Source: a virus
Strand: one strand, 5' to 3'
IMG/VR virus record: IMGVR_UViG_3300050821_003647
Coordinates: 1 to 64,000 of that record
DNA length: 64,000 bases
Part shown: positions 27,864-54,264 of the stretch, piece after piece
Numbering within the stretch: position 1 is the stretch's first letter
Layout of the letters: the number at the start of each line of letters is the position of its first letter
Translations under genes and position numbers: made by a program
Notes under the pieces: model-generated
What the model was told of the DNA's origin: nothing
The model's input: only the letters and a program-made list of their open reading frames with translations
Databases searched by the model: none

Positions 27864-29506
<1,643 letters not shown>

Positions 29507-29518
29507 TATGGGCAAACC

Positions 29519-30887: not shown

Positions 30888-30888
30888 C

Positions 30889-31314
30889 TTAGAAATCACC
30901 ACCCATAACGTTGACGCTGATCAGCTTGCCGCTGGTCACGGTAGTGAGCGCAGAAACCGTCAACGTGTCGCTCGCGCTAAGCAAGAAAATAAACGGATTG
31001 CCATCGCTATCTACGGCGAGACCCGGCAACTGTGTACTGTTAAAACCATTCACAGACGGAACGGAGCCAGAGTTACCGGCACCGATAGGCACAGTGACAG
31101 TTCCCAGCACGTAAGATGTGCCACCGTTCGTAATGGAAATCTGCACATCGCGCGCAGATGTATCAGTCGATGAAAAGATAAGCCCCACCAACTTACTACC
31201 GTTTGCGCCACCCGTATACACGGTCTTCTGGGTCTGCGCATCCCCATTAGCAATCTGAACCTTACCGTTCTTCGGCGTTTGAACGGTAACAATTGAGTTA
31301 GGTGTCGTAGCCAT
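30889..31314 (-). CDS. beta-rich structural protein
   Basis: AGGAGGA SD. 141-aa T/S/G/V-rich ORF. Confidence 0.65.
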   Translation of the reverse strand: MATTPNSIVTVQTPKNGKVQIANGDAQTQKTVYTGGANGSKLVGLIFSSTDTSARDVQISITNGGTSYVLGTVTVPIGAGNSGSVPSVNGFNSTQLPGLAVDSDGNPFIFLLSASDTLTVSALTTVTSGKLISVNVMGGDF

Positions 31315-31366: not shown

Positions 31367-32775
<1,409 letters not shown>

Positions 32776-32779
<4 letters not shown>

Positions 32780-33160: not shown

Positions 33161-33973
33161 TTACAGGTTCCACCATTGTCCGGTTGAAACTACCCAACCT
33201 TGCTGCGAACGAGTACGGAAATTCTGTGGGTATGCCCACGCCTGCGATCCGTTAGTATTCTGGCGCATAGCTGCCACACGTGCGATATTTACACCTTGTC
33301 GGAAATACTGATAATTCAACGAACCCATTTTAGGGTCTGAATATGGGCGATTAGGTTGAAGCATAAGTTTAGCTTTAATGCCAGCCAATAAATATGGCTC
33401 ATACTTATCCATAATCGACTGTGGTATATCCGGCAAATCTGGGTCTTGCGGCCTGTCAACGCTCTTTACTACTACCGCAAAAACAGGAGTGGTTACACTC
33501 TGCGGATATTGGATTTGCAAAACGTTTAGTTGCGGCATAGCCGCCGTAATAAAGATACCATTCAAATCAAGTACACCAGTAAGCGCAATAATCTTACCAG
33601 CAGGGATAGGATCACCAAGGCTCTGTGGTTGACCCGGCACAAGTTGATATAAGACTATCCCAGGCAAAAGAAGCCCTGGAATTTGCTCGATCCATACTTT
33701 GCTATCGTTGAAGAACTCAACGAACACATCGTACATAGCCATACGTATCATGGCGTCACTGGCGCCTACTAGCTCAATTCGTGCTCGCTTATATAGATAG
33801 CCAGTATGGGGCTCAACTGGTACCACCGTTCCAGCAGCGGGACCACTAGCACCGGTCACACCAAAAAACGCTGGGCCAGTTACCGCTCCGGTAATTCCCA
33901 GGAAGGCTGGGCCGCTGGCACCGGTGGCGCCAGTAGGACCAAGCCAAAATTCATTCCAGCCGTCGTCTGACAT
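33161..33973 (-). CDS. adaptor/tail-tubular-A-position protein with degenerate collagen-like N-terminus
   Basis: GPTGATGASGPAFLGITGAVTGPAFFGVTGASGP followed by a 220-aa globular domain. Function assigned from position after the connector. Confidence 0.55.
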   Translation of the reverse strand: MSDDGWNEFWLGPTGATGASGPAFLGITGAVTGPAFFGVTGASGPAAGTVVPVEPHTGYLYKRARIELVGASDAMIRMAMYDVFVEFFNDSKVWIEQIPGLLLPGIVLYQLVPGQPQSLGDPIPAGKIIALTGVLDLNGIFITAAMPQLNVLQIQYPQSVTTPVFAVVVKSVDRPQDPDLPDIPQSIMDKYEPYLLAGIKAKLMLQPNRPYSDPKMGSLNYQYFRQGVNIARVAAMRQNTNGSQAWAYPQNFRTRSQQGWVVSTGQWWNL

Positions 33974-33975
33974 TT

Positions 33976-34413
33976 TTAACCCTTCGGCGGTGCCATACCT
34001 TTAGTGGATTTCTCTTCAGTGAGAATATTCTCGAAAGTCATCAACCGTGCAAGAGCACGTTCATCTTCGATATCCTCTTGATCACGCTGCATAGCATGAC
34101 CGACGATCCCAAACACTAGTGCGCGGCGGAATGGCTGTTCTATTGGCACCCACATGGTCCATGTAGGGTTATCGTCATCATCAAAGTTAGCATCTACACC
34201 AGGAACAAGCGTAGAAGCTGCGTCATTCCACTCATACTGAGGCACATTATCGAGGTAGTCGATAAGAAGATCAGGGCGAAGCCGTCGCACGTCCATCATT
34301 GTGAGATTTAGGGCGTTGATCAGGTCAGACGTGGAATATCGATACGGGACGAGTTGGTCCTGGAGCAAGGTCCTGGCATCGTCTAGATAGTCGCCCACAA
34401 TGTCGAATGCCAT
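33976..34413 (-). CDS. head-tail connector/completion-like protein
   Basis: 145-aa ORF immediately after the capsid gene. Assignment from position only. Confidence 0.45.
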   Translation of the reverse strand: MAFDIVGDYLDDARTLLQDQLVPYRYSTSDLINALNLTMMDVRRLRPDLLIDYLDNVPQYEWNDAASTLVPGVDANFDDDDNPTWTMWVPIEQPFRRALVFGIVGHAMQRDQEDIEDERALARLMTFENILTEEKSTKGMAPPKG

Positions 34414-34422
34414 GTGAACCTC

Positions 34423-34454
34423 ATAATAAAGCCCCCCGTTATTACACGGGGGGC
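34423..34454 (-). terminator. rho-independent terminator after the capsid gene
   Basis: On the minus strand: GCCCCCCG-tgtaataa-CGGGGGGC followed by TTTATTAT. Confidence 0.75.
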
Positions 34455-34482
34455 CTTAAGTTCGTGTTAAAGGCTGGCTTTA

Positions 34483-35490
34483 TTACGAGCCAGGGGTAAC
34501 CTGGGCCTGGACCAGCGCCTTGCCGTCCACAACCTGATAGCCATAGACTTGGAGGCCACGAAGCACCTGACCAAAGGTCAACTCGCTTCGCAGCGTTTCG
34601 ACCTTCGAAATCTGGCTGGCGAACGTGAGCCCATGTGCATGGCCCGCGTAGATCGGCCACTCACCCGGAGCAAAGTTCACAGCGTCCGTGCTGTTGTTCG
34701 GAAGCAGGTTGCTGATATAGAGCGTGAACCGGTCAATCATGCCCAGCCGCCCATTACGCAACATGCTAACGCTGTCACCAGACAGATAAGCCTGACGGAG
34801 TTCAGACTGCTTGACCATCCTGCCAGCCCACGCCGGCATAACGACCCATCGGCCGACTTCCGGAATGTTCTGCTCGTCAAGAACCTGACCCATACGCATG
34901 AGCACATCGAGCAACTCAACTTCGCCCGAGGTAGGATCACGCGCCACAACAGAAAGTGGCGAGCCAGTCACGCCAAGGTTGACGTTACCGGTGATGACGC
35001 CCGCAGCCGTCCCACGGTTAGCAGCAACCATCTGGTTGGCAATGCCATCCAGAACGTCGGTGTCAACAGCGATCTTAAGCTGCTGGGCAGCATCGTCTGA
35101 CCACATAGAGAGAATATTCAGATCGCTCTGAATTTCCATCACGTCGTCAAGGATCAGCGAGAAGAACTTACCGTTACCGATATAAAGTTCCACCGTGCCA
35201 CCGCTTGGGCGGTCCAGAGGAAGCAATTCGTCGGCAGAGTAGTTTCTAATGGTGATCGTGGGCTTCGTTCGGATTTTCACCCGGTCGCCCTTATTACGAA
35301 TTTCACCCTCGTAGTCCGTGTTGCTAATCGCAGCAAGGACAGTGCTTGCGTAGAACTTCTCCACAAGCTTGCCGCTCCAGATTTCCGGGATAAACCCAGT
35401 CGCCTGAAGGGTGTTAGCAGTACCGCCAGCCGGATAAATACTAGTGCCACCAGCCGGGGCAATAGGAAATGCACCAGAAGGAATGGGCAT
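34483..35490 (-). CDS. major capsid protein
   Basis: 335 aa, directly after the scaffold-like gene and followed by a strong terminator. GFIPEIWSGKLVEKFY N-terminal region typical of HK97-fold podoviral coats. Confidence 0.7.
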   Translation of the reverse strand: MPIPSGAFPIAPAGGTSIYPAGGTANTLQATGFIPEIWSGKLVEKFYASTVLAAISNTDYEGEIRNKGDRVKIRTKPTITIRNYSADELLPLDRPSGGTVELYIGNGKFFSLILDDVMEIQSDLNILSMWSDDAAQQLKIAVDTDVLDGIANQMVAANRGTAAGVITGNVNLGVTGSPLSVVARDPTSGEVELLDVLMRMGQVLDEQNIPEVGRWVVMPAWAGRMVKQSELRQAYLSGDSVSMLRNGRLGMIDRFTLYISNLLPNNSTDAVNFAPGEWPIYAGHAHGLTFASQISKVETLRSELTFGQVLRGLQVYGYQVVDGKALVQAQVTPGS

Positions 35491-35507
35491 GACTAACCCC
35501 TATGTTT

Positions 35508-35540
35508 GGGAGTTAGCCATGTCTATGGTCAATAACTCCC
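35508..35540 (-). promoter_or_regulatory. 8-bp stem hairpin between the scaffold and capsid genes
   Basis: gggagtta-N17-taactccc in the 54-nt intergenic gap. Possible RNA processing or translation-control element. Confidence 0.35.
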
Positions 35541-35544
35541 TTGA

Positions 35545-36600
35545 TTAACGAACACGACCAGCGCGTTGGCATTCGAAAATGATCGCTTCATCGTTCATGC
35601 GATCCTGTTCTCTGCCTGCGTACACGCCTTCACGCACATTCTTATAGAACTGCGTGATTTGGCCGCGAGTGATCCAGATGGGAGCATCAGCGGACTGCCC
35701 CGGTTGGGTACCGGTAGCCGGCTTTGCATGGCCAGGGGCTGCGAGCGTTTGAAGCTCTACTGACGGGGTGGCAGGCTGGGCAGTGAGCGCAGGCTGTTGG
35801 TTCGTCAGAAACTCAGTGGACCCTGTAGCTTCTTCCTCAGCGAGGAAGCCCTTGAAGAACGCAACCACCGCGGCGGCATCAGCGGCCTTATGTGCTTGGT
35901 TCAGCAAATCCTGTCTTACTTGACGTGAGTAAACATCTCGTAAACGCAACCAAGCCTTAAAACGGGGGCTCACATTAATTTGTGGCCAATTAGGAACCTC
36001 AGTATCAAGCGTAGCCTCGATACTTTGATTGGCTTGGTTTTGTAGCCGTTGTTCCAGACGCCTATTATCTTGCTCAAGCTTCATCAACGTAGGCTGCACC
36101 GCCTGTAAAGCGGCGCGCTGTGCCACACTTAAGAAGTCCTGCCCATAAGTTTCCACGTCTTCCTTGGTGATCAAAGGAACAGGTGGAGTAGGAGTAACCG
36201 GTGGTGGCTGGTTCACAGGCTGGCGGACCTGGGTACTAGCAAGCGCAGCAGTTACTTCGGATAGGCTTGATTGGAGCGATTGGACAGTTTCCTGGGTCTG
36301 CTTAAACCGTCCTTCCATGGACTTGGCTTGGTGCATCCATTCGTTAACGCCCCAGGAAGCACGGTCATCGTTAGGTTGAGAAGGTGCTGGAGTTACAATA
36401 GTAACCGGTTGAACAGTCGGCGACGATGTTACCGGTACAGTAACAACAGGTGGATTAGCCTGTGGGCTGTATGCCTGGGCATGAAGCTGGGCGGCGCGAT
36501 CGGCTTCCAGCTTAACTCTTGGGGGGACAACAACATTCGGATCAATCGGTGGCAAGGGCATACCCTTTGCATCCACCGTCTTTTCAATCGGGGCAACCAT
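35545..36600 (-). CDS. scaffolding protein
   Basis: 351 aa, Q/A/P-rich with coiled-coil segments, upstream of the capsid gene. AGGAGAA SD. Confidence 0.6.
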   Translation of the reverse strand: MVAPIEKTVDAKGMPLPPIDPNVVVPPRVKLEADRAAQLHAQAYSPQANPPVVTVPVTSSPTVQPVTIVTPAPSQPNDDRASWGVNEWMHQAKSMEGRFKQTQETVQSLQSSLSEVTAALASTQVRQPVNQPPPVTPTPPVPLITKEDVETYGQDFLSVAQRAALQAVQPTLMKLEQDNRRLEQRLQNQANQSIEATLDTEVPNWPQINVSPRFKAWLRLRDVYSRQVRQDLLNQAHKAADAAAVVAFFKGFLAEEEATGSTEFLTNQQPALTAQPATPSVELQTLAAPGHAKPATGTQPGQSADAPIWITRGQITQFYKNVREGVYAGREQDRMNDEAIIFECQRAGRVR

Positions 36601-36620
36601 TTTATTCTCCTGTCATCTGG

Positions 36621-36878
36621 CTACGGCATGAAGGCGTAGGCAGGGTCCATCAATGTAGTCGGTGATGTTGGCACATCAAGATGAGTGAAGACATTCAGCC
36701 AGCCTTTATTGGCCAGGGCAAATCCCTTCGCTGTCATGATGTTGGCAGCATCCGCTTCGGTCACAGCATCTACGGCTTCCGCCGTGTATTCGTTAAATAC
36801 CTTAACGAATTGATCCCACTCTTCGGGCGCACGGGCGCGAAGGTGACGGCAAACTTCCTTGATATCAGCTTCTTTCAT
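36621..36878 (-). CDS. small acidic hypothetical protein
   Basis: ORF with a TAATG overlap to the upstream gene. Confidence 0.55.
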   Translation of the reverse strand: MKEADIKEVCRHLRARAPEEWDQFVKVFNEYTAEAVDAVTEADAANIMTAKGFALANKGWLNVFTHLDVPTSPTTLMDPAYAFMP

Positions 36879-37150
36879 TACACCATGCCCTGGTCTTGGC
36901 CAGGAGCACCACCAGCGCCCATTCCCATAGGAGGTGCGCCCATAGGCGGGGCACCCATTCCACCACCCATCGGTGGCGGAGGAGGCGTAGGCAATGGGGT
37001 TGCCTTGGCATAGTTATTGAGTGAGGGCGCTGCTTGCGTCAAAGCCCCAGGTTTTGGTTGTGGCGGGAAAGGCTTAGCGCCCTTACCCGCATGCTTAACA
37101 ACCTGTCCATGCTTACTGAGTGGGGTCAAGTGTTTGATGAGAGGTCCCAT
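36878..37150 (-). CDS. small disordered P/G/M-rich protein
   Basis: ATG at 37150 (TGATG overlap). PPPPPMGGGMGAPPMGAPPMGMGAGG. Confidence 0.5.
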   Translation of the reverse strand: MGPLIKHLTPLSKHGQVVKHAGKGAKPFPPQPKPGALTQAAPSLNNYAKATPLPTPPPPPMGGGMGAPPMGAPPMGMGAGGAPGQDQGMV

Positions 37151-37389
37151 CAAGTTTCTCCTGTTAAACCTGTAGAGCCAAACGAAGATTTCGACCCTTC
37201 AGTGGCACCAAGAGGCTGTTCTGCGCCCATCTCAGGCTTCGCATAATCCCTACGGGAAACCTTCACCCGTGGAAAATTAGTAGGTGCTCGAACCGCTTGC
37301 TGAAACCTAGGACCCCCAGACGTACTTCCGGTCTTAGGAACCTTCGGTGTCCCACCAATTCCAGGACCTTTAGGCGAAAATCCCGCCAT
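37150..37389 (-). CDS. small disordered basic G/P/S-rich protein
   Basis: ORF with TAATG coupling. Confidence 0.5.
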   Translation of the reverse strand: MAGFSPKGPGIGGTPKVPKTGSTSGGPRFQQAVRAPTNFPRVKVSRRDYAKPEMGAEQPLGATEGSKSSFGSTGLTGET

Positions 37390-37724
37390 TACCGGGCGCT
37401 CGTAATACCGTCACGCGCGGGAACCGAACCTTGGTACCCAAACATCTTGGTCGAGCCACCCTTGGCAAACTTGTCACCCGTACCGGTGGATTGGTCCGAA
37501 CCGGTATCATGCTCAGTCACGCCTTCCTTTTGGGGTTCAGCGGCCTGATGGCCAAACATCGGGGTGTCGCCACCCTCAGCAAACTTCGCAGGCTTCCCAC
37601 CAACTGCATTACCCTCAGCCTTACCCTTAGGCATAGAATAGCCGGCAGTCGTGGAACCCTTGGAACCGGAACCCTTATGGACGTTATCGCCCTCGCCGTA
37701 ACCGCCTTCACCGCCCTTAGCCAT
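37389..37724 (-). CDS. small disordered protein with three [FK]A[EK]GG motifs
   Basis: AGGAGA SD. MAKGGEGG, KFAEGGDTPMFG, KFAKGGSTKMFG. Confidence 0.6.
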   Translation of the reverse strand: MAKGGEGGYGEGDNVHKGSGSKGSTTAGYSMPKGKAEGNAVGGKPAKFAEGGDTPMFGHQAAEPQKEGVTEHDTGSDQSTGTGDKFAKGGSTKMFGYQGSVPARDGITSAR

Positions 37725-37771
37725 GGAAATCTCCTATGATCATGATCAAGATCATAAGTAGCACCTGCTGG

Positions 37772-38782
37772 TTAAAAAATCCTGTCGGTCCAGGTCTTAG
37801 GACAATATGGGCGCTGGATTTCAATTGGGAGATGATATTGGAATGGCCTTGGGCCACGCTTAATCATGGCATCAGCCATTTTCGTAAGACCTTTGTAAAG
37901 CGTAGTTTTTGTCTGGTAACCTAGTAATTTTCGCGCCTTCTTAGAGGAACAAAGTGCAATCTTAACTTCTTGAGGGCGTCCAGGCATATAAATTGGTTGG
38001 AGATTAAAGAAATTAGTTACAGAGGCAACTTCATTTGCTAATTCATTAATTGTTATAGGTTGTTCATCTGGCCCAATATTAATCACGTGGCCTACAACAT
38101 CCTTCTGAAAGCCCATCTTAACCAAACAAGACAAACAATCGTCGATAAACGAGAAACATCGTTGTTGGCGTCCATCTCCGTAAATAATTGGCTGCTTCCC
38201 CTGAAGCATACGGTTCATCATAATCGAAGCCACATTACGGAATGGATCATCATATTTCTGGCGCGGACCAATGATATTGTGGGGAACAGCAATCACATAC
38301 TCCGTCTCGTGCGTATCACATAGATTGATCAGAATTTTTTCCGCTGCCACCTTGGCGATCCCATAAGGGTCCTGTGGGTAAGTCAAATGCCATTCCTCAA
38401 ATGGGGGTTGACCAGCACCATAGCGCGCCATAGACGAACAATGGACAATCCGCTTTACGTTAGCCTGGATAGCGGCAGAGAAAACAGCCGTTGACGCACC
38501 CACTATACTCTCTACCACAGTGTGCGGCGAAAAGACGCTTAACCCTTCATAAGCAAGAGCGGCGCAATGGTATACAAGGTCTACTTGTCGCATAACAATT
38601 GGGTTGTGTACCAATTGCTGGCAATCCATCTGATAAAAATCCAAACCGATAGCGTCCGGAATATTATCCCTATCTCCACCAATCATGTTGTCAATTCCGA
38701 CAACCGTATGACCGTCCTTCAGCATCGCATCCGCAAGGTGGCTACCGAGAAATCCGGCAACACCAGTAATTAGAACCTTCAT
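37772..38782 (-). CDS. NAD-dependent NDP-sugar epimerase/dehydratase (extended SDR)
   Basis: GVAGFLGSH Rossmann motif, catalytic SS..YGIAK (YxxxK). 336 aa. Confidence 0.85.
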   Translation of the reverse strand: MKVLITGVAGFLGSHLADAMLKDGHTVVGIDNMIGGDRDNIPDAIGLDFYQMDCQQLVHNPIVMRQVDLVYHCAALAYEGLSVFSPHTVVESIVGASTAVFSAAIQANVKRIVHCSSMARYGAGQPPFEEWHLTYPQDPYGIAKVAAEKILINLCDTHETEYVIAVPHNIIGPRQKYDDPFRNVASIMMNRMLQGKQPIIYGDGRQQRCFSFIDDCLSCLVKMGFQKDVVGHVINIGPDEQPITINELANEVASVTNFFNLQPIYMPGRPQEVKIALCSSKKARKLLGYQTKTTLYKGLTKMADAMIKRGPRPFQYHLPIEIQRPYCPKTWTDRIF

Positions 38783-39402
38783 GGCGCAATCCGCTCAAAA
38801 GTAATCAGCCATTCATGAGGTTGAACCTTGGGACCAAGACCACCAGTAATAACATGGCATATGGCCAGAAATTTAGAACCTAATTCTTGCGGAACAGACT
38901 GGAAAATAGGTGCAAACTGTTCCACTCCTGGTGCTGTACCAAGGTCCTCAATCACATAGACCCCGCCCACATTTACAAAGGGCAAAAGGGTCTTGAGTGA
39001 TGTAATCTGGTGCTCACGCACATGTGAACCGTCATCCACGATCAAATCGAACAAGGGCGCGTCTTGATCGAATTTCGACAAGACTTCGACAAGTTGGCGC
39101 GGGTTGTTTTGGTCTGCTGTAAAAACACTAATTCGTTCTTCTTGATGCCTGAGGCAATCAGCGTTACTATCGATCCCCACGATATGGGCGTTAGGGAAGT
39201 ATTCCTTCCACATCCGGAGGCTCGATCCTGCATGCACGCCAATCTCCAGTACGTGTTTAATTTCATCGCGATGCTCCCCAAATAATTCGTGATACACAGG
39301 TGTGTATTCATGACAAGTATCACTATCGCCACCACCATACCGGTAGTGCTGACCACCCTTATCGGTTTCGTATTTTTTAGCTAGCTCGCAAAGTGGGGTC
39401 AT
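38779..39402 (-). CDS. class I SAM-dependent methyltransferase (TylF/CmcI-like, sugar O-methyltransferase-type)
   Basis: KYETDKG start, motif I VLEIGVHAGSSLRMW, DLIVDDGSH. AGGAGGA SD. Confidence 0.75.
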   Translation of the reverse strand: MTPLCELAKKYETDKGGQHYRYGGGDSDTCHEYTPVYHELFGEHRDEIKHVLEIGVHAGSSLRMWKEYFPNAHIVGIDSNADCLRHQEERISVFTADQNNPRQLVEVLSKFDQDAPLFDLIVDDGSHVREHQITSLKTLLPFVNVGGVYVIEDLGTAPGVEQFAPIFQSVPQELGSKFLAICHVITGGLGPKVQPHEWLITFERIAP

Positions 39403-40096
39403 ACGGTCCTCCTGGATAGTTGTCTAGTTGCGAAGCGTCGTACTCAGCAGCATACCATTGGAAAGGAAGCTTAGATACTTGCTCAACCAACGCCCAAATT
39501 GGCAGATCAAGCGGCACGGTCTTATGTCGAGAAATCCACTCTTTTAGTGTGTTTTTATACACAAGATCAATAGCCGGAATATAGGGGTCCGGCCAGATAT
39601 GTGTAGAACCACAGAAACGCCAATTATTGCAACCTGAATAGACCATTCCTTTTTTAGCAATTCCAGGGAATGGAATATAATTCATCGGCTTCTGTGACAA
39701 AGAAACACGCGCCAGAAAAGTTTTAACGCTATTCTCTGTCACAGGGTTATTCCGCCACGCTCCCTGCTTCAAAATACCATAATCCAACCAGCACCAAACC
39801 TCTACATCCGGGTGGACCTTTGATGCTTGTTCCGCCCAAGTCGTGCGCTGATGCTGCACAATATGCGACATAACATTGACTTCAGGCGATACATACCGAT
39901 CCGCAGGCACTGGCATATCAGTTGGAAGACCAGTACAAAGATTGTAAGCCCAACAATTCTCCAGCTTTCCACCTCCGACAAAAAACGTATGACCCTCGCA
40001 CGCCCTCGATAGCTTCCGCCCCAATTCATGGTAATCATCCTCTGACAGATGCTTCACAGGAAGCGGGATAAATCCAGTGACTACGCCGACCTTCAT
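39377..40096 (-). CDS. uncharacterised protein, paralogue A (candidate glycosyltransferase)
   Basis: Shares VVTG(F/Y)I..P, VQHQ(R/K)..W, VW(C/I).(L/I)DYGI and WRFCG(S/G) blocks with 40305..40970. Confidence 0.6.
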   Translation of the reverse strand: MKVGVVTGFIPLPVKHLSEDDYHELGRKLSRACEGHTFFVGGGKLENCWAYNLCTGLPTDMPVPADRYVSPEVNVMSHIVQHQRTTWAEQASKVHPDVEVWCWLDYGILKQGAWRNNPVTENSVKTFLARVSLSQKPMNYIPFPGIAKKGMVYSGCNNWRFCGSTHIWPDPYIPAIDLVYKNTLKEWISRHKTVPLDLPIWALVEQVSKLPFQWYAAEYDASQLDNYPGGPYDPTLRAS

Positions 40097-40308
40097 AGTG
40101 ACCCCGCCAATTTCTTAATCTTAGCTTTTACTTTTAACCCGCGTCGTGTTGCACTAGTCGCCCGTTTGTCTCGCCAAATTTGTACCCTTTTTACCTCACG
40201 AGAAAATTTGAAAATATGAGTTAGTCCACAATCACAACACCTTATTCGAAGAACTTTAGGCCAACTATCATAATCTCCACTTTTAACTTGCTCATATTTT
40301 GTACTCAT
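40093..40308 (-). CDS. 71-aa basic protein with CCDCGLTH motif
   Basis: ORF ATGA-coupled at both ends. Confidence 0.55.
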   Translation of the reverse strand: MSTKYEQVKSGDYDSWPKVLRIRCCDCGLTHIFKFSREVKRVQIWRDKRATSATRRGLKVKAKIKKLAGSL

Positions 40309-40970
40309 GGGGCACCTGTAAATATCGTTTCATTATGATCCGCTTGATACCATGCCATAGGAACTTGGTCAAGAAGTTCCAGCCTAGCAAGGGTGTTAAC
40401 TTCCCACTCCACGTTACGGGTCTCACTAATATAGCGAGCCGCGGTTCCCATCGCATACGCCGTAAACGGCTTTACCAGTGCACGAGGCACGATCATTACG
40501 CCGCCGCAAAAACGCCAGCATGGGTGTGCTGGATCGATATCCTGTTTCTTAATCCAACAGCCAGGGAGTGTCACCTTTCCATAACTGTCCACCCGGTTTA
40601 GGAACTTACTAATTACCGAGGCGGTAACACCGGGTACATGCATGATGCCGTAGTCAATCCAGACAAATATTTCAGCCTCTTTATCTTCCGCTGCCGCAGT
40701 ACGCAACCATTCAAACTTTTGGTGCTGCACACAGTGATACGCAATTGTATTCTTGTCGGGGTTATCCGACACTGAATGAGACAGATTTGGTACACCTTTG
40801 ATAAAAGACGCTAGCCACGTATCCTGTACCTTCTGTTGCTCGCTGTCGAACACAAGCGCTTCAACGTCCCCTAGAGAACCCAATAGCTGTTCCCCTAGCG
40901 CCTTGTAGTCGTGGGCACCACGAGGGTGATTAGGAATATCGATATACCCAGTGACGACCTTTACGCCCAT
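40305..40970 (-). CDS. uncharacterised protein, paralogue B (candidate glycosyltransferase)
   Basis: ATG at 40970 (GAGGGA SD) gives MGVKVVTGYI.., colinear with paralogue A's MKVGVVTGFI.. Confidence 0.6.
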   Translation of the reverse strand: MGVKVVTGYIDIPNHPRGAHDYKALGEQLLGSLGDVEALVFDSEQQKVQDTWLASFIKGVPNLSHSVSDNPDKNTIAYHCVQHQKFEWLRTAAAEDKEAEIFVWIDYGIMHVPGVTASVISKFLNRVDSYGKVTLPGCWIKKQDIDPAHPCWRFCGGVMIVPRALVKPFTAYAMGTAARYISETRNVEWEVNTLARLELLDQVPMAWYQADHNETIFTGAP

Positions 40971-42979
40971 AGCAAATCCCTCACTTCGTGCTCGTCTATT
41001 GTTGCAAGCCATGCTTCACGATCAAGCACACCAAACGAGACGATGAACCTATTGAAATGCTCGTCGTGCGCTAATCCCGCAACAAATTCAATTTGCTTAT
41101 CAAAGAATACAAATGGTTTAGAGATTTTAACCAACTCATAGTTCTGGTTAAACCACACAAATCGGTGCTGGTAATATCTCTTTCCGTTGGTAGGGTCCGG
41201 ACGTGCCTCGTGAACGATTGCAACCCAACCACCGTCAAACGGTATACACTGACCACCACCTGAAAGTTGATCTATTGCCTTGGTAACCGGTTGCCGGCCT
41301 ATAACATTACCCTTTTCATCAATTCTAATTTCAGGTTTATAAATAAACTCAACACCCTTTTCTTTCAATGGTCCATCCCAACTATCCATGTAGTTTTTAT
41401 TACCTAGTATAGGCATCCAATTCTTTTGGTTTTCTTTAGGGTATATTCGCGGCTCGATATATCGCCAGTCTGTAACCTCGCCAGTATCTGGGTTAAGCTT
41501 CATAAAAAACTGTTCACGCCATGCTTGTGGGTTTTGTTCAAGCACACATCCGTTTGCCCAAAGTTCTCCGTTTATCGGGATAAGTCTCATATCCTCAACA
41601 TCAAGCACATCCTTGAACACAGGTTCGGGGAACCCAGTAGGACGCTGAAGTTCTACCGCTTTTTCGAGGAACCACCCCTGGTGATTTTCATTAAAATCAG
41701 CCAAATAGCTAGTGGTACGAATAGCAGAGTTACCGTTATAATCGTAGCTACCATCAGGTCTAATCCTATAACTAACCGTTCGCACAATTGCCTTCACCTT
41801 ATCGCCCACGAAAGCAACAGATGGGTTAGAATTCACAAACTTGCTATCCGGATTTACCTCCGGAATACGCCACGCCTTAAAAGACCGTGCGTAATTCTTG
41901 ATCGGCTGCAAATACCAGAACAAGTTCCGCCTAGCAGTCTCACGGACAACATCGGGCACCTTGCGCATAAGGGAAAGCTTATCAGCAGCAGCAAAGCCAA
42001 TATCCCGTGTCTTATCGTTGTAAGCCCCCAGTATAGACAGTTCCTCAGTGAACCCATAATCATAAACATGTTCCTCGACAAACAACAAATCACCCGGCTT
42101 CTTTATCTTCGACCCAGCCTGGGCAAAAAGCCAGCCAGACTGTTGTTGATTGTCCTTTTCACGATAATGCCGGGCAAGATCGTAAAGGGGTTCTGCCCGC
42201 GAGGGCCGCGAGTTATATGCATCCAAAGACGCTTGAATAAATTCAGCCTCTTTACCTAGGGCTCGGTAGCACCGTGCGATGGCGAGTTTGGCGTACCAAC
42301 ATTCTTCGTCCCATCCGCCAACGTCAACTCTGCGTCGGTAGAACTCGATCGCCCGGGTATGGTCACCACTGTCACGGTAAGTCTGGGCAAGATAAAATAG
42401 AGTGCGCCCGTCGTTAGGGTGGCTATTAAGATACTCAGTAAGAAGTCGTGTATCACGGACATATTTTTCACTCCTATTGGAACCTGTAGCATGGTCTCGA
42501 AACCACCAGCAATCGGTTGAAAGCTTAGCCGGTGGTGCATCAAGGTACTCGTGCGTCACACCGTGGTACTTGCGATCCGAGCCTTTTCGCAAAAGTCTTG
42601 CATTGTAATACGCAAGCGATCCTTGGCGCTGCAAAAGGCTATAACATTCTTCGGTAAGTTTTGGTAGTGGTCCATCAACCACTAGTTCCATGTCTGCATC
42701 GCAGAACATGATATAGTCAAACCCTGCATGGAACCGTTGCGCATAGAACAACGCCTTATTGCGGGCTTGCTCAAAATTCTTGAACTCACCCTCTACAATC
42801 TGATGTGGGATACTATGTGTATTAAACATGGACCGCATAAGCGCTTGTGATCCATCCGTGGACCCTGTATCAAAAATTACCGCCGCGGTAATATGTGGAC
42901 ACACGCTCGCAAGCATACGAGGCAAGTTCACCATTTCATTCTTGATGATGGCATTAAGACAAATGCGTGGCTGCGACAT
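40961..42979 (-). CDS. family-2 glycosyltransferase fused to TPR repeats and a ~380-aa C-terminal beta-rich domain
   Basis: IIKNE..VIFDTGSTDGS..FCDADM (GT-A DxD). TPR-like FYLAQTYRDSGDHTRAIEFYRRR..WYAKLAIARCYRALGK. I could not assign the C-terminal domain. Confidence 0.8.
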   Translation of the reverse strand: MSQPRICLNAIIKNEMVNLPRMLASVCPHITAAVIFDTGSTDGSQALMRSMFNTHSIPHQIVEGEFKNFEQARNKALFYAQRFHAGFDYIMFCDADMELVVDGPLPKLTEECYSLLQRQGSLAYYNARLLRKGSDRKYHGVTHEYLDAPPAKLSTDCWWFRDHATGSNRSEKYVRDTRLLTEYLNSHPNDGRTLFYLAQTYRDSGDHTRAIEFYRRRVDVGGWDEECWYAKLAIARCYRALGKEAEFIQASLDAYNSRPSRAEPLYDLARHYREKDNQQQSGWLFAQAGSKIKKPGDLLFVEEHVYDYGFTEELSILGAYNDKTRDIGFAAADKLSLMRKVPDVVRETARRNLFWYLQPIKNYARSFKAWRIPEVNPDSKFVNSNPSVAFVGDKVKAIVRTVSYRIRPDGSYDYNGNSAIRTTSYLADFNENHQGWFLEKAVELQRPTGFPEPVFKDVLDVEDMRLIPINGELWANGCVLEQNPQAWREQFFMKLNPDTGEVTDWRYIEPRIYPKENQKNWMPILGNKNYMDSWDGPLKEKGVEFIYKPEIRIDEKGNVIGRQPVTKAIDQLSGGGQCIPFDGGWVAIVHEARPDPTNGKRYYQHRFVWFNQNYELVKISKPFVFFDKQIEFVAGLAHDEHFNRFIVSFGVLDREAWLATIDEHEVRDLLWA

Positions 42980-43011
42980 GGAGTGGGGCTCCTGTTTCGC
43001 TATGTACTACC

Positions 43012-43884
43012 TTAGCCAGCAGAGATTGTCAAGGTCCCCTGAAGGGCATTCACACCGGTAGCACCGGGCGCAGCCCCGTCGTAGAACGTATCCGTGTAGT
43101 CAAGGTTCGCAACCAACTTAAACCACACCGCGCCATTGATATGTGGGTCCCAAGTTGGCGGGATAAACAGCCCACCGGTTGGACCAGTAACACCTTGGGT
43201 AACGTCAGCACCATCATTACCATCCGCAGCACCAGACCCGCCACCCGGAGTAACAATTCGTTGGATCGTTTTGAAGGCGCCAAACACACCTGGACCAGTA
43301 GGACCAGTAGGACCAGTTTGACCAGTAGGACCAGTCGGCGGATTAGGACCAGTAGGACCGGTACCGCCAGCCCCAGTAATGCCCGTTGGCCCTGTAGACA
43401 ACGTAGGTCCAGTAGGCCCCGTAGGGCCACTATTACCATAAAGCCCAGTAGGACCGGTATCACCCTGTCGTGGCTTCACACCTGTTGGACCGGTCACACC
43501 AGTAAAGCTTGACCCTGAAGGACCAGTAGGACCGGAAATACCCTGAGCACCAGTCGGTGTAGTGGGGAAAAATCCAGTAGGACCGGCAACGCCAGTAGGA
43601 CCAGTAGGACCGGTCGAAGGTCCAGTGACGCCAGTAAACCCTGTTTGACCCGTAGGTCCGGTAGGCCCCCGTGGCGCAGCACCGGTAGGACCAGTCGCAC
43701 CGGTCTTACCAGTAGGACCAGTTGGTCCACCCACATTGGTAAAGCCAGCCGTGCACCCGCCAAGATTGACGATATCCACAACCTGCTTCAGAATGTCACG
43801 GATATACCCGCCCCATGCCTTATCATAATTTCGCGCAGAGCGAATGCCAGGACCGTTAAATGCGCCAGTAGCACCGGTTGCCAT
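43012..43884 (-). CDS. collagen-like fibre protein (portal-proximal pair, member 2)
   Basis: [13 protein letters not shown]-terminal domain, G-X-T runs, C-terminal DPHINGAVW...GTLTISAG. Confidence 0.8.
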
Positions 43885-43896
43885 TCCAATCTCCTA

Positions 43897-44511
43897 TTAA
43901 CCAGCCGAGACGGTCAGCACACCTGCGTTGCTCCAAACCGCGCCCTTGATATGTGGATCGCTGGTCGGCGCCACAAAGAGCCAATTGCCACCCTGAGCAC
44001 CGGTATTCCCAGTAGCACCAGTAGGTCCAGTCGAAGCACCAGTAGGTCCAGTCGCTGAATTAGGACCAGTAGGGCCTGTTGGCCCAGTAGCAGGACCTGG
44101 ACCGGTCACACCAGTTGGCCCCGTCTGACCAGTCGGACCTGTTGCCCCACCCGTCGCAGCCGGCCCCGCTACACCCGTAGGACCAGTCACACCAGTCGCG
44201 TTTGCACCAGTAACACCGGTTGGCCCGGTAGGCCCTGTAGGCCCACCAGCCGGCCCGGTAGGACCAGTAACGCCGGTATAACCAGTTGCAGGAGAAGTAC
44301 CAGTCGGACCCGTGTTACCGGTTGGACCAGTTGGTCCAGTTGGCCCAGTAGTACCAGTCGCACCACCAGTTGGTCCAGTAGCCCCAGTGTTTGCCTGAGG
44401 ACCAGTCGGCCCACCAATATTACCCGCATTGATCGCATCCACAACCTGCTTAAGAACAGGACCGATCGTTTGCAAATCATAGAAACGCGAACTGCGGATG
44501 TTGTAGGTCAT
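43897..44511 (-). CDS. collagen-like fibre protein (portal-proximal pair, member 1)
   Basis: [13 protein letters not shown]-terminal domain, G-X-T runs, C-terminal [20 protein letters not shown]. Confidence 0.8.
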
Positions 44512-44569
44512 GATCCTATCTCCGAAGAATTCTTCACCATGGTCTTACTTGGTCCAGGTAAACATACCG

Positions 44570-44938
44570 TTAGGGGCGAACTTCCCAGTCAATCGAACCA
44601 TCGCAATCGCCCGCACTTGCTGTCGAAGCACTCGCCCCGGAAGCAGTCGTAATTGCCCAAGCCATACCGTTAACACATTTCAAACCAGCCAAACCCGTGT
44701 ACTGAGCAGGAGGCGCTCCCTGGTTAGCCGATGTACCAGCAGAAATACCAAACTGCCACGTTGGTTTATCCACCCCCAAAACCGGTGCCCGCCCTAGATC
44801 AAAAATCTGCAAATAGCGGATAGACGTAGTGTGATTAAACACATAAAATGCGCTAACCTTACAAAAACCAATATGAACCAACTGAGTTGCCGGTGTAACC
44901 GATAAATCAACTGGTGAAAAACCAAACGGGTTACCCAT
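44570..44938 (-). CDS. hypothetical beta-rich head-module protein
   Basis: GGAGA SD. 122-aa ORF directly after the portal gene. Confidence 0.6.
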   Translation of the reverse strand: MGNPFGFSPVDLSVTPATQLVHIGFCKVSAFYVFNHTTSIRYLQIFDLGRAPVLGVDKPTWQFGISAGTSANQGAPPAQYTGLAGLKCVNGMAWAITTASGASASTASAGDCDGSIDWEVRP

Positions 44939-44949
44939 GGCTATCTCCC

Positions 44950-47316
44950 TTAACCGGCGCCACCTTGAATAGGTATAGCTCCAGGTCCTTTAGAATTCCC
45001 TACCGTCGCAGTTTGCGGTCCCATGTGGTTAGTACTCAACTGACTTGGCCGTGATCCTTGCGCACGGGCAGCGGCGTGAGCCGGGCTTGAAGGTGGTCCT
45101 TGAGGACCAGATGGCTTTCCTGGCCCACCAGACTGGCCTTGGGAACCCCCAGGAGCCGACTGGCTCCCAGGAGGCCCACCGGGCGTACCACCCCCTGGAG
45201 CAGTTCCTAGGTGGACGGGAGGCCCAAGGGGAAGCCTCTCGTCTTGAGCAAGTTGGCCTGCGGTCAACTCTTTAGTAATCTGCTGTACACCGGCCTGGAC
45301 ACCAGCCTGGACACCCTTGGAGACAGCCTGGGCCGCGGCAGCACCTTGCGCATTATCTTGTTCTGCCTTTTGCATCTGATCAAGCTTATCGTCATCCGGA
45401 ACGATCTCTTCGCCACACAGACCAATCGTGCTAGATACCGCCCGCAGAACTTGACCTCGGCCTTTAAGTCCAACGATCTTCTGATCAACCGGGTTCGCAG
45501 TCGCCTGAAGGAACTCGATCTGGCGTTGACGTTGAGTTTCACGCTGGATTGCCACATTCACACCCTGGACGCTCACTCTCTCTTCGCCAGTAAGCAAGCC
45601 ACTTGTGTCGGTTAGCAAAATAAGATCGAAAAGCTGAAGCAGAGCTAGCTCCATCACTTCTCGGTCTACATTAGCGGATACAGTCTGCAAAATTTTTGAC
45701 GCGTTGCCCATAAGCATGGCCAGCCCTGACGCGGTACGCCCCGCGTTGCCGCCAGCTTGTCCACCGATATATTTCGGAATTGCAGAAACATCGTCCGCTA
45801 CTTCCGTCAGATACTGCAACACCTTCACGAGTTTGTCCGAATTGTCCATCGGTTGGAAAAAACCCATTGGCTCCCTGGTTGCCGTAGTGCCCGTGAGATA
45901 ATTCTTCCTGATATGCCACCGCTTCCATGGGAACATATCCTCTGTGTTCTCATTTGGGTCCATCTGATCGTCATCGATCCACACCTGGGGACCAGACGCG
46001 ATCGAAAGGTTATTGATCAGCGACCGCATCGTTGCGTTAGAAGCTTCTTGAATATCGGAAAGGAGGTCGGTAAGTCCGTTTCCAACTGGCGTTCCCGGGA
46101 CTTTTTCAAATGAAGTAATGAAATAAGGGTGACGCATTCGCGGCGACGGTGACAACTGCGCTTTAATGACGTGGGAACCGATGCACCACACTTGCATGTG
46201 GTAATCCCTAAGTTCATCTTGCACAGCGAGCCCGTAGTCTTGAAGAACTCGACCTTGGACATTACCGTTAAACTCCATCATCGACAACATGCCAGACCGG
46301 TTCCAAGCAGGGTTCTCCCTACTCTCAAGAACAGCCCGTTCAGCATCTGTCAGGTCCCAATTATCATATAGACCACCGCGGCCATATTCGTCAAGAACCG
46401 CCTGAATTTCAGCATTATTATATCCAGGCAAACCAAGCAATTCATTCAACTCAGCACGAGTAACCTGCTTCTTTTCGATGATATTCGCATTCTCAATCGA
46501 AGCAACGCCAGGGGTCCACCACAAATCAAACGGAGACACACGCTCCCATGTCAATGTCGGCTTCATCTCAACAGTAGGCTGGCCTTGGCCACCTTGAGGC
46601 CATGTTACCGTTGGCACCATACGGACAATAGGGCCTTTGATACAGGCAAATGGGAAAATGGGAAGATCAACAAGAAACTCAGCAAGAGCATGGTAAAAAC
46701 CGCCTTCTCGAAGGATTTCGTCAATCTTATCCTCACTGTCCCGTGCCTGATCACTTGCCTTCTTTTTGGCCGCATCCATAGCACTCTCAAGAAGTGCCTG
46801 TTTACGCTTCTGAACATCAACAGGCGACGGCGGTTGACCTATAGTCTGTTGGATCATCCCAGCTTCTTGCTGGACCAATTGGTCAATTTTTTGCTTAATT
46901 TCATCGGGAATTTGCGGATCGCTAGTTGGTTTCAATCCCCATGGCCGATCCGGACCTAGATAAATATCACGCAAAAGAGAACTTGCAGCCCTGCACTTCT
47001 GCGCAATCATACGCATGTAGACTTCGGACCCACCCCAACGGCGTATCTGCTGTAGCTTGGTGGCGTCATATTGACCGTTAAAGGCGCGCAAAGCGATCAA
47101 AAGGCGCTCAGACCAACCCTGCTGCGTATTCCGGTGATTACGGAAAATTTCATACTGCCCCTTGATATAAGACACCAAGGTTGACACATCAGGCTGTGTC
47201 TGCGATTGTGCATTGGCATTGGCCTGCGCCTGCATAGACGCCTGCTTCTGTTGCTGGGCATCTAAAATAGCAGGGGGGACAACTTGAATTACACCGTTTT
47301 GCCCAAGAGCAGCCAT
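44950..47316 (-). CDS. portal protein
   Basis: ~788 aa, first gene of the virion operon and divergent from the packaging genes. G/P/S/Q-rich C-terminal tail. ATG at 47316. Confidence 0.65.
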   Translation of the reverse strand: MAALGQNGVIQVVPPAILDAQQQKQASMQAQANANAQSQTQPDVSTLVSYIKGQYEIFRNHRNTQQGWSERLLIALRAFNGQYDATKLQQIRRWGGSEVYMRMIAQKCRAASSLLRDIYLGPDRPWGLKPTSDPQIPDEIKQKIDQLVQQEAGMIQQTIGQPPSPVDVQKRKQALLESAMDAAKKKASDQARDSEDKIDEILREGGFYHALAEFLVDLPIFPFACIKGPIVRMVPTVTWPQGGQGQPTVEMKPTLTWERVSPFDLWWTPGVASIENANIIEKKQVTRAELNELLGLPGYNNAEIQAVLDEYGRGGLYDNWDLTDAERAVLESRENPAWNRSGMLSMMEFNGNVQGRVLQDYGLAVQDELRDYHMQVWCIGSHVIKAQLSPSPRMRHPYFITSFEKVPGTPVGNGLTDLLSDIQEASNATMRSLINNLSIASGPQVWIDDDQMDPNENTEDMFPWKRWHIRKNYLTGTTATREPMGFFQPMDNSDKLVKVLQYLTEVADDVSAIPKYIGGQAGGNAGRTASGLAMLMGNASKILQTVSANVDREVMELALLQLFDLILLTDTSGLLTGEERVSVQGVNVAIQRETQRQRQIEFLQATANPVDQKIVGLKGRGQVLRAVSSTIGLCGEEIVPDDDKLDQMQKAEQDNAQGAAAAQAVSKGVQAGVQAGVQQITKELTAGQLAQDERLPLGPPVHLGTAPGGGTPGGPPGSQSAPGGSQGQSGGPGKPSGPQGPPSSPAHAAARAQGSRPSQLSTNHMGPQTATVGNSKGPGAIPIQGGAG

Positions 47317-47353
47317 GAACAATCCATTAGGGGAACTAGGTTAAGAACTCGTC

Positions 47354-47899
47354 ATGACACAGATAGTCCCCACGCTGCCCGCTGTTACCGTGCCGGTAAT
47401 CCCGGATGCACCACAACTCACCATTGTTATAGTCGCCGGCCTAGCCAGGGAAATTGCAATGGGGATACGGGAGGTACCCGATATCCTTGAGACCTACAAG
47501 CTATCGCCAGCAGATTACGAAAAACTTAAGGATCACGAGGTCTTCGTTAAGCTGGTTGACAGCGCCCGAATTGAATGGCATGCTGCGACTAACACTCCAG
47601 GGAGAACCCAGATAGAAGCAGCCGCCGCCCTCGAACAGGCTATTCCAGTAGCCTACGCACGAGCAATCAGCGGTAATGAGGCAATGAACCATGTCACTGA
47701 CTTCCTCAAGCTTCTCGCAGATATCGGAGGTGTCCGGAAAGACCCAAGCAAAGCCTCCCCGGGAGAGAGGTTCCAAATCAACATCAACCTTGGGGCTGAT
47801 ACGACGATTTCACTCGATGGGTCTAAGATGCCCATCTCAGGTGATCCAGTCCTACAAGCCCTTCCGATGCCTGAGATTGATAAAGAGGAGCGCGTCTAA
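47354..47899 (+). CDS. hypothetical protein (small-terminase position)
   Basis: 181-aa ORF, first gene of the packaging operon. No motif recognised. Confidence 0.55.
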   Translation: MTQIVPTLPAVTVPVIPDAPQLTIVIVAGLAREIAMGIREVPDILETYKLSPADYEKLKDHEVFVKLVDSARIEWHAATNTPGRTQIEAAAALEQAIPVAYARAISGNEAMNHVTDFLKLLADIGGVRKDPSKASPGERFQININLGADTTISLDGSKMPISGDPVLQALPMPEIDKEERV

Positions 47900-54083: not shown

Positions 54084-54190
54084 TTCACTCTCCTATGTTA
54101 CCGTCACGGTAGATCGGGCTCCTGACCACAGCCGTAGCATTCTCGCGTACCTGTGGTTGGCTTTGTCGGTACGACTTCTACCGTGACGGT
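54028..54190. repeat. three copies of a TACCGT(C/G)ACGGTA palindromic box
   Basis: gttaccgtcacggtag occurs at 54028-54043 and 54097-54112. The inverse accgtcacggtag occurs at 54178-54190, abutting the tRNA-Asn 3' end. Confidence 0.7.
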
Positions 54191-54264
54191 GGAGACAGGA
54201 GTTGGGATTGAACCAACGACCAGCGGCTTAACAGACCACCGCTCTACCACTGAGCTATCCTGTC
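54190..54264 (-). tRNA. tRNA-Asn(GUU): tRNA-Asn (anticodon GUU), CCA encoded
   Basis: Hand-folded cloverleaf: acceptor GACAGGA/TCCTGTC, D arm GCTC/GAGC, anticodon loop CTGTTAA, T arm GTTGG-TTCAATC-CCAAC, 3' TCCA. Confidence 0.85.

Follow-up and report, generated by a model that had tools for sequence, protein, structure and literature searches.

Why should a tailed phage from soil carry a set of sugar-modifying enzymes amongst the genes for its virion, and what might those enzymes modify? The question is posed by a 64,000-nt stretch of the IMG/VR virus record IMGVR_UViG_3300050821_003647 (hereafter the window), in which six co-oriented minus-strand open reading frames (ORFs) at 37772-42979 (hereafter the island) are embedded in a ~35-kb minus-strand run of virion genes. 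An earlier description of this DNA, made by a model from its letters (the sequence-only reading), had proposed that the phage makes a possibly methylated deoxy-sugar and attaches it to its own collagen-like fibres or capsid. The fibre-directed part of that proposal was strengthened by the present analysis, whilst the deoxy-sugar detail was not. We consider it probable that the island encodes a cytoplasmic, late-expressed O-glycosylation system for the phage's own collagen-like virion proteins, which are built from glycine-x-threonine (G-x-T) triplets, because its largest enzyme is homologous to the glycosyltransferase SgtA of Clostridioides difficile, because this enzyme is linked to G-x-T genes in both phages and bacteria, and because a related phage without the island has no collagen-like gene.

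The SgtA-like enzyme and the G-x-T genes around it

The largest island product is a 672-aa enzyme of three domains, all encoded on the minus strand. Residues 1-165 (42485-42979) form an SgtA-like GT-A (GT2) catalytic domain, matched by PF00535 (E 5.7e-6) and predicted to initiate a glycan on Thr of G-x-T repeats. Residues ~170-355 (41915-42472) form a tetratricopeptide repeat (TPR)/helical domain, matched by TPR Pfam profiles and predicted to be the binding site for the repeat-peptide acceptor, and residues ~365-672 (40964-41887) form a five-bladed beta-propeller of the GH130/GT108 type, a predicted second glycosyl-transfer domain. The enzyme also matched phrog_13126 (E 6e-22), and its AlphaFold2 model had a pLDDT of 93.7, with helices at residues 171-355 at pLDDT ~96. 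These results bear out the GT2-TPR architecture given in the sequence-only reading, which had left the third domain unplaced.

SgtA has 358 aa and a GT-A+TPR layout; its gene lies directly upstream of bclA3, and in vitro the enzyme adds beta-O-linked N-acetylglucosamine (GlcNAc) to Thr of the GPT collagen repeats of BclA3 (PMC7157674). For comparison, an sgtA-bclA3 pair was recovered from a metagenome (L188) via the cloning primer printed in that paper. BLASTP aligned residues 6-327 of the phage enzyme with residues 4-338 of SgtA at 23% identity over 356 columns (E 1e-15), and hhalign of its 69-member family against SgtA scored 99.2% (E 3.6e-19) over 257 columns, covering both the GT-A and TPR regions. 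The previously quoted DTGSTD and DAD motifs were found, and their residues D36, T37, G38, S39, D41, D93 and D95 were invariant in 69 homologues and aligned with VDTGSTD and LDAD of SgtA. Judged by these alignments, the N-terminal half of the 672-aa enzyme is a true homologue of SgtA. By structure, the best solved Foldseek matches of the GT-A and helical half were the peptide S-glycosyltransferases SunS and ThuS (E 6e-13); by sequence, the match to SunS (E 0.011) was far weaker than that to SgtA.

Foldseek searches with the C-terminal 300 residues retrieved GH130 beta-mannoside phosphorylases and a mannoside synthase (5ay9, 4udk, 1vkd, 5b0q and 9erg; E 2e-9 to 5e-9, TMt 0.5-0.58), and the modelled domain is accordingly described as a GH130/GT108-like five-bladed beta-propeller at the level of fold. 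No GH130 family was matched in Pfam or NCBIfam, and a profile of the C-terminal domain searched against PDB chains found no GH130 at E<=10, so that the fold match stands alone. Some JGI annotations label homologues of the propeller 'GH43/DUF377'. Residues E461, D462, R464, H589, Y602, H604 and R605 were invariant among the homologues, and the propeller was fused to an SgtA-like transferase in more than 1900 of them, some members being fused in addition to methyltransferase or GT1 domains.

A clear G-x-T collagen-like character was found in five proteins of the window, whose Y positions are occupied by Thr in about 70-78% of cases; all five, encoded on the minus strand, are predicted acceptors. 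Directly upstream of the 672-aa enzyme gene, across a gap of 32 nt, lies the gene for a 290-aa protein (43012-43884) with 35 G-x-T and with Thr at Y in 27 of 41 triplets, which is syntenic in relatives. Beside it is a 204-aa protein (43897-44511; 30 G-x-T, Thr at Y in 26 of 34 triplets, PF01391 1.3e-8) that has N- and C-terminal motifs in common with the 290-aa protein. The others are a tail-proximal 470-aa protein (31367-32779; 61 G-x-T, Thr at 56 of 72 Y positions), a 201-aa protein (28910-29515; 28 G-x-T) and a 353-aa protein (27864-28925; 32 G-x-T) with a non-repeat C-terminal domain. The sequence-only reading had counted at least six. A 270-aa virion structural protein (33161-33973, minus strand; phrog_437) carries just seven triplets, in an N-terminal G-x-T/S tag of ~45 aa that is kept in the nearest relatives with an island (L002, L004, L005) and was not found in L018, L152 or the homologue of the Rhizobium phage; the protein may be an additional, minor glycosylation target. 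The tail-proximal 329-aa product of 29913-30902 (minus strand) consists largely of poly-Gly/Ala/Asn/Ser runs (GGGGGGG) and is not G-x-T collagen-like.

The pairing of this enzyme with collagen-like genes recurred among 79 viral loci with the enzyme family. A collagen-like ORF, defined at first as one of at least 80 aa with at least 10 triplets, lay within 3 kb of the enzyme in 51 of the 79, and four or more consecutive G-x-T/S triplets occurred within 2.5 kb in 53 of the 79, compared with 0 in shuffled flanks. Of the 19 viral loci that extended 8 kb or more in both directions, 18 were positive. The first criterion had missed one subclade, in which mini-ORFs with short G-T-T tails were found by manual inspection; about 13 viral loci were collagen-negative even under the relaxed criterion. 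Within the podophage family, gene order was conserved as portal, one to three G-x-T genes, glycosyltransferase (GT), parB and parA (the paralogous island genes described below), methyltransferase/sugar-nucleotide enzyme, scaffold and major capsid protein (MCP), and this synteny held at portal identities of 58-97% and MCP identities of 70-99%, while GT identity dropped to 35-50%.

Other phages showed comparable arrangements. On a 102-kb forest-soil contig (L019, 1-20708), parA, a sugar-nucleotide enzyme and a B12-binding radical-SAM enzyme were found among four collagen-like genes encoding up to 1786 aa, together with a 1091-aa fusion of methyltransferase, GT2, TPR and propeller, and on an 88-kb contig (L165) the GT was followed downstream, after 73 bp, by a 692-aa collagen-like ORF. 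A cultured example is the jumbo phage Tunturi_5 (host Tunturiibacter psychrotolerans), whose 367-aa GT2-TPR homologue (gp35, 37% identical) is encoded 3.7 kb from a 1474-aa G-x-T tail fibre (gp29) with 110 G-x-y triplets; the paper on the Tunturi phages gives gp35 as an auxiliary metabolic gene (AMG) only and never mentions collagen. The closest cultured phage, Rhizobium phage RHph_TM3_14A (MCP 65% identical), lacks the island, its order being portal, three small ORFs, scaffold and MCP, and no collagen-like ORF was found in its whole 60.9-kb genome.

The same linkage was evident in bacterial chromosomes, where one genome per species was scanned (326 relatives) and the best 80 loci (L021-L100) were analysed. 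Of these best loci, 62 had a collagen-like ORF, in 59 cases within 2.7 kb of the GT, and collagen-like ORFs filled 22-33% of bases at 1-4 kb from the GT versus 8-11% at 6-10 kb. The taxa represented were Mesorhizobium, Bradyrhizobium and other Alpha- and Betaproteobacteria, Acidobacteriaceae and Verrucomicrobiia. In the bacterial collagen-like ORFs, the G-x-T counts nearly equalled the triplet counts, and the ORFs reached 2943 aa with 893 triplets. A TylF-like methyltransferase gene lay beside the GT in most bacterial loci, and parB-like genes were found in betaproteobacterial ones. Examples include an Acidobacteriaceae metagenome-assembled genome (L049), Mesorhizobium sp. CU3 (L021) and Bradyrhizobium (L045, L062). 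DUF4347 is present in the neighbours of the GT in L006 and L007, the two loci for which genes had been called; a literature search on DUF4347 returned nothing relevant, and no paper describing giant bacterial G-x-T proteins was found.

The slot between portal and GT was also seen to house small proteins of 48-131 aa in several loci (L152 at 9514-10010; L128, L134, L141, L157 and L166), which have an N-domain of ~50 aa in common and a G-x-T tail of 0 to 8 triplets. In the window, this slot is taken by the 204-aa protein, which has ~30 triplets and an N-terminus loosely similar to theirs.

The other island genes and their setting

The coordinates of the six island ORFs were verified, as was the previously reported coupling of the genes: successive ORFs overlap by 52, 4, 4, 26 and 4 nt, and all three 4-nt overlaps are ATGA couplings. 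Two of the products, a 239-aa protein (parA, 39377-40096, minus strand) and a 235-aa protein (parB, 40305-41012, minus strand, with a likely true start at Met15, position 40970), had earlier been recognised as paralogues of no placeable family. Their paralogy was confirmed at 27% identity (E 4e-25). An AlphaFold model of parA built with 75 homologues reached a pLDDT of 96.4, and its best solved Foldseek match was the chlorovirus GT A64R (2p6w; E 1e-6, TM 0.51/0.58), followed by the collagen GT domain of human LH3 (4e-4), GT34, GT6 and Mimivirus R655/R699. Amongst predicted viral structures, giant-virus GT-A proteins matched best (TMq 0.70-0.73). At the level of sequence profiles, A64R was the sole match, a weak one over its DXD region. 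The Trp (W102) and Asp (D104) of the WLDYG motif of parA and parB are invariant; D104 aligns with the first Asp of 'WLDSD' in A64R, and the second Asp is replaced by Gly.

No Pfam, PHROG or NCBIfam family matched parA or parB, and tblastn of parA against 50,697 phage records gave no match. The parA family comprised 730 representative clusters in 1.84 billion, and its domain fusions involved GT2, GT25, FkbM and TylF-like methyltransferase, and TPR domains. parB is syntenic in relatives, with homologues in betaproteobacterial collagen loci. On this evidence, we assign both proteins to an undescribed GT-A family of glycosyltransferases, with glycan elongation as the predicted role of parA.

The ORF at 37772-38782 (minus strand) encodes an extended short-chain dehydrogenase/reductase (SDR; PF01370, E 3e-46) predicted to supply one nucleoside diphosphate (NDP)-sugar donor. 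The motifs GVAGFLG (GxxGxxG), CSS (116-117) and YGIAK, the first and last of which had been noted before, aligned with those of solved enzymes, and full-length alignments with solved relatives were obtained at E 3e-36 to 2e-31, the top one being deposited as UDP-glucose 4-epimerase. The next two matches bear generic depositor names, and we take them to be 4-epimerases. The SDR scored below every NCBIfam equivalog cutoff (GalE, 85 bits vs 262; LegB-like, 131 vs 475; RmlB, 80 vs 365). In 4,6-dehydratases, one or more acidic residues follow straight after the catalytic Ser/Thr (T-D-E or S-x-E); the SDR reads C-S-S-M-A-R-Y-G there, with no acidic residue. Of the two alternatives offered by the sequence-only reading, epimerase or dehydratase, the alignments favour the former, and the enzyme is most likely a 4-epimerase. 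Since the dehydratase signature is missing, the sugars are probably not 6-deoxyhexoses, and synthesis of a deoxy-sugar was rejected as a candidate function on this ground together with the 4-epimerase amongst the nearest solved relatives. Nor did the island proteins include, by Pfam and NCBIfam, any dehydratase, aminotransferase or rhamnose-pathway enzyme, and the suggestion that they comprise the same classes as the rhamnose and anthrose pathway of BclA was not sustained.

One relative (L014) encodes, in the position of the SDR (18336-19097), a 253-aa 2-oxoglutarate (2OG)-Fe(II) oxygenase (PF13640, E 1e-13). This family includes prolyl-4-hydroxylase-type enzymes, and the oxygenase may modify Pro-rich repeats.

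The adjacent ORF (38779-39402, minus strand) encodes a 207-aa S-adenosylmethionine (SAM)-dependent sugar O-methyltransferase of the TylF/MycE type, consistent with its earlier designation as TylF-like. It matched phrog_21658 (7.5e-23) and, in the PDB, the TylF-like demethylmacrocin O-methyltransferase 8ia9 (E 5e-24) and MycE 3ssm (E 3e-21). Both previously quoted motifs, LEIGVHAGSS and DDGSH, were found, and 'DDGSH' and 'GGvYviED' (YVIEDL) are identical in the 8ia9 and 3ssm alignments. The protein consists of the core domain only, aligning solely to residues 165-308 of 8ia9 (of 397) and 198-329 of 3ssm (of 419), and is without the ~160-aa N-terminal auxiliary domain of the macrolide enzymes. 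In L019 and P0243, this methyltransferase domain and the GT form a single fusion protein.

The sixth ORF (40093-40308, minus strand; GC 0.38) encodes 71 aa and had been counted as a CCDC protein of the island. It proved to be an AT-rich, genome-specific insertion of precisely 213 bp between the parB stop and the parA start, clean in alignment with L002, L009 and L005, with ATGA coupling kept at both ends. No tblastn match was obtained in any locus, even in a relative with a 97%-identical portal, and no family matched; it was rejected as part of the cassette.

The gene order given previously, with the island between portal-side collagen-like genes and the scaffold and capsid genes, was also verified. 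It runs portal (44950-47322), a 122-aa protein, two collagen-like genes, the island, four small Gly/Pro-rich proteins, scaffold and MCP, with further structural genes beyond the MCP, including an internal virion protein. The 122-aa protein (44570-44938, minus strand), between the portal and collagen-like genes, is conserved, with syntenic homologues at 33-75% identity in relatives and no family match. Promoter-like consensus sites at 34000-48000 numbered 12, compared with 13.3 expected from shuffles, and terminator-like sites 16, compared with 14.1; a promoter or terminator of the island's own was rejected, as consensus sites were not above shuffles, and nothing points to a separate transcription unit. 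The window also encodes a DNA polymerase, helicase, primase-like protein, exonuclease and large terminase and, judged by this content, has the look of a lytic, podovirus-type genome equipped with replication genes of its own. No integrase match was found among the ten largest other window proteins scanned, a scan that was not exhaustive.

The composition of the island had been taken as a sign of horizontal acquisition, from single 60-nt lines counted at 35-38% GC in the island and 63% in the capsid gene. Those values (0.35, 0.38 and 0.63) were right but unrepresentative: the island as a whole has 46.4% GC, compared with a mean of 49.8% (standard deviation 1.6) for all 5.2-kb windows. This dip of 3.4 points does place it in the lowest 0.5% of such windows. 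Its codon usage was ordinary, 58% of null contiguous gene blocks being at least as distant from the genome, and in relatives with a genome GC of 57-60% the island stood at 54-57%. Because the dip is small and recurs in relatives of differing GC, and because codon usage is ordinary, the island is an old, ameliorated resident and not a recent import; recent acquisition and a strong compositional island were both rejected on these data. Megablast of the island region against the 50,697 phage records gave no match.

Some further observations concern neighbouring genes and relatives. Two minus-strand tRNA genes, Asn(GTT) and Pro(TGG), lie at 54190-54264 and 55939-56015; a role in serving the repeat genes was rejected, as these have no special codon demand. 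The 1011-aa plus-strand product of 8206-11241 matches primase/helicase-like PHROGs, not an integrase. EVB41_076 of the Rhizobium phage (MN988472; ~1000 aa, 'putative integrase') has a similar position, after a 409-aa protein where its window counterpart follows one of 396 aa, and its 'integrase' label may be wrong. In L005, the scaffold and a shortened MCP gene call are separated by a LAGLIDADG-type ORF (15084-15563; weak PF00961), a hint that the capsid gene contains an intron or a homing endonuclease.

Proposed pathway and rival explanations

From these assignments we infer the following order of steps, in which the sugars, the acceptor and the late timing are all proposed. The TPR domain of the SgtA-like half would hold the repeat peptide whilst the GT-A domain transfers the first sugar, perhaps a HexNAc (N-acetylhexosamine) such as GlcNAc by analogy with SgtA, to Thr at the Y position. 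Three further modules, namely the propeller, parB and parA, would then extend the glycan. The SDR would turn a host NDP-sugar into its 4-epimer, a donor that the host may not supply, and the methyltransferase would O-methylate a sugar hydroxyl, probably as a terminal cap, leaving fibres coated with a short methylated oligosaccharide. No transmembrane segment was found in any of the six island proteins (maximum 19-residue hydropathy <=1.52), which argues for cytoplasmic chemistry; virion proteins fold in the cytoplasm. Domain fusions tie the parts together, both in the methyltransferase-GT2-TPR-propeller protein of L019 and in the parA-family fusions to GT2, GT25, methyltransferase and TPR domains.

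Several findings weigh against this pathway. Interruptions of the G-x-y runs are frequent, and in the two island-adjacent proteins no perfect run exceeds 7-8 triplets. The propeller matches GH130 at fold level only, parA and parB carry WLDYG in place of a canonical DXD, and the substrate of the SDR cannot be named, all equivalog cutoffs having been missed. The SDR is, moreover, missing altogether from some relatives (L014, L015), and since it is absent or replaced there, the donor-supply step is variable. A subclade with a portal ~61% identical (e.g. L128, L141 and L157) keeps GT, parB and parA beside a small slot protein that has the ~50-aa N-domain and only 0-5 G-x-T triplets. A long repeat protein next door is therefore not strictly required for the cassette to persist, and repeat length is very plastic. 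Most loci of that subclade end before the tail region, where the window has three more G-x-T genes.

The same subclade gives some weight to an explanation that we regard as unlikely, namely that the sugars are placed on different virion proteins, such as those of the major capsid, the decoration or the tail tube, the collagen-like genes being bystanders or encoding one of several acceptors. The position of the island between the portal and scaffold/MCP genes would suit such a role, A64R, the best solved match of parA, glycosylates a capsid protein, and the literature mentions phage GTs in connection with mycobacteriophage capsid glycosylation. Nevertheless, the homology to SgtA favours G-x-T repeats, and the linkage to them is found in bacteria too, which have no capsids; the MCP has no Ser/Thr-rich tail, and the MCP of RHph_TM3_14A is 65% identical in the absence of an island, so the capsid needs no such system.

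Less probable still is an action on the host surface, whereby the enzymes would alter lipopolysaccharide (LPS), exopolysaccharide (EPS) or host glycoproteins for superinfection exclusion or release. GT2 and GT-A enzymes often make polysaccharides, one Mesorhizobium homologue lies near flippase, aminotransferase and acyltransferase genes, and similar phage GTs have been read in this way (PMC7029224, PMC10202952, PMC11924767). The six proteins are, however, unlike a Gtr-type transferase/flippase in having no membrane segment, and their genes are translation-coupled within a late virion operon of a genome that has a lytic-type look and, in the limited scan given above, no integrase match; homology to SgtA and linkage to G-x-T genes again speak for a different substrate. 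That the propeller, or perhaps the whole enzyme, is catabolic, a mannoside phosphorylase salvaging host glycans, as its best structure matches would have it, appears very improbable given its constant fusion to an SgtA-like transferase, the additional methyltransferase and GT1 fusions of some members, the synthetic character of phosphorylases running in reverse, and a fold that also takes in true GDP-Man- or Man-1-P-dependent mannosyltransferases and dual-activity enzymes (PMC12814180).

Wider meaning and comparison with known systems

Should the island indeed glycosylate the phage's own collagen-like fibres, then tailed phages of Gram-negative soil bacteria sugar-coat receptor-binding or decoration fibres with enzymes of their own, and many annotations of phage GTs beside tail-fibre genes would need rereading. 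This reading is not the current default, since phage papers interpret comparable GTs as modifiers of host surface or DNA, or as AMGs (PMC7029224, PMC10202952, PMC11924767). The enzymes that elongate the BclA3 glycan were not identified by the C. difficile study (PMC7157674), and the island would provide candidate elongating enzymes for collagen-repeat glycans, as well as a function for an orphan GT-A family and, with a glycoprotein as substrate, for a GH130-like domain. Attention would also be drawn to an unstudied class of giant collagen-like glycoproteins in rhizobia and further soil bacteria. The pair of gp35 and gp29 in the cultured phage Tunturi_5 makes the central claim directly testable.

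A broader picture may be sketched, which we hold to be possible but on balance doubtful. The SgtA-like+propeller enzyme would mark a widespread and hitherto unrecognised class of glycosylated G-x-T collagen-like surface fibres amongst soil bacteria (Alpha- and Betaproteobacteria, Acidobacteriota and Verrucomicrobiota), giant DUF4347 proteins as long as ~2900 aa being part of it. A large soil podophage family, represented by at least 581 viral contigs, would have adopted this chemistry, as would two or more further phage lineages, for methylated-oligosaccharide coats on their own fibres, elongated by parA/parB and a GH130-like protein-glycan transferase. Adsorption, stability or evasion could be tuned by way of such a coat, which might also mimic the glycosylated fibres of the host.

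Three of the elements discussed here have precedents, namely the action of SgtA as an O-glycosyltransferase of GPT repeats, the glycosylated virions of mycobacteriophages, and collagen and fibril glycosylation in giant viruses. The present analysis adds a family of SgtA-like+propeller fusions that, in phages as well as soil bacteria, is systematically paired with G-x-T proteins; an orphan GT-A family, that of parA/parB; and a cassette with the predicted functions of an epimerase, four transferase modules and a methyltransferase inside the virion operon of a tailed phage.

The closest known system is SgtA/BclA3 of C. difficile, with which the phage enzyme has in common its sequence homology, GT-A+TPR layout, the motifs IVKNE, DTGSTD and DAD (LDAD in SgtA), solubility, and a gene adjoining that of a G-x-T collagen-like protein. 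It differs in its ~300-aa GH130/GT108-like propeller and in an identity of only 23%, and the phage set adds two GT-A enzymes, an epimerase-like SDR and a sugar O-methyltransferase, all within a virion operon. The BclA protein of Bacillus anthracis likewise has Thr-rich GPT collagen-like repeats, and these carry short, partly O-methylated oligosaccharides containing rhamnose, 3-O-methyl-rhamnose and anthrose; the island, in contrast, has no dTDP-rhamnose or anthrose pathway genes.

Amongst viruses, the A064R protein of chlorovirus PBCV-1 (A64R domain, 2p6w) has the GT-A fold of parA and parB and belongs to a virus-encoded cytoplasmic glycosylation machinery that includes a sugar methyltransferase domain. 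It is, however, only ~12% identical to parA/parB (TM 0.51-0.58), and its virus is a eukaryotic giant virus whose acceptor is a capsid protein with atypical N-linked glycans rather than collagen-like repeats. Mimivirus encodes both collagen-like proteins and enzymes for surface-fibre glycosylation (the L230 hydroxylase/glucosyltransferase and the R655/R699 GTs), and R655/R699 and PLOD-like GT domains were among the structural matches of parA; its collagen glycosylation takes place on hydroxylysine, with other enzyme families and in a eukaryotic host, whereas a bacterial-type O-glycosylation of Thr is proposed for the phage. In mycobacteriophages, GTs encoded among the virion genes are thought to modify virion proteins, the acceptors being capsid and tail-tube proteins, but these phages are not known to have an SgtA-like+propeller enzyme or a collagen-like acceptor, and parA had no tblastn match in the 50,697 phage records. 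Finally, SunS and ThuS also belong to GT2 and act on peptides, with a helical domain for binding the substrate; their acceptor is Cys in a bacteriocin precursor, modified by S-glycosylation, and their sequence similarity to the phage enzyme is marginal.

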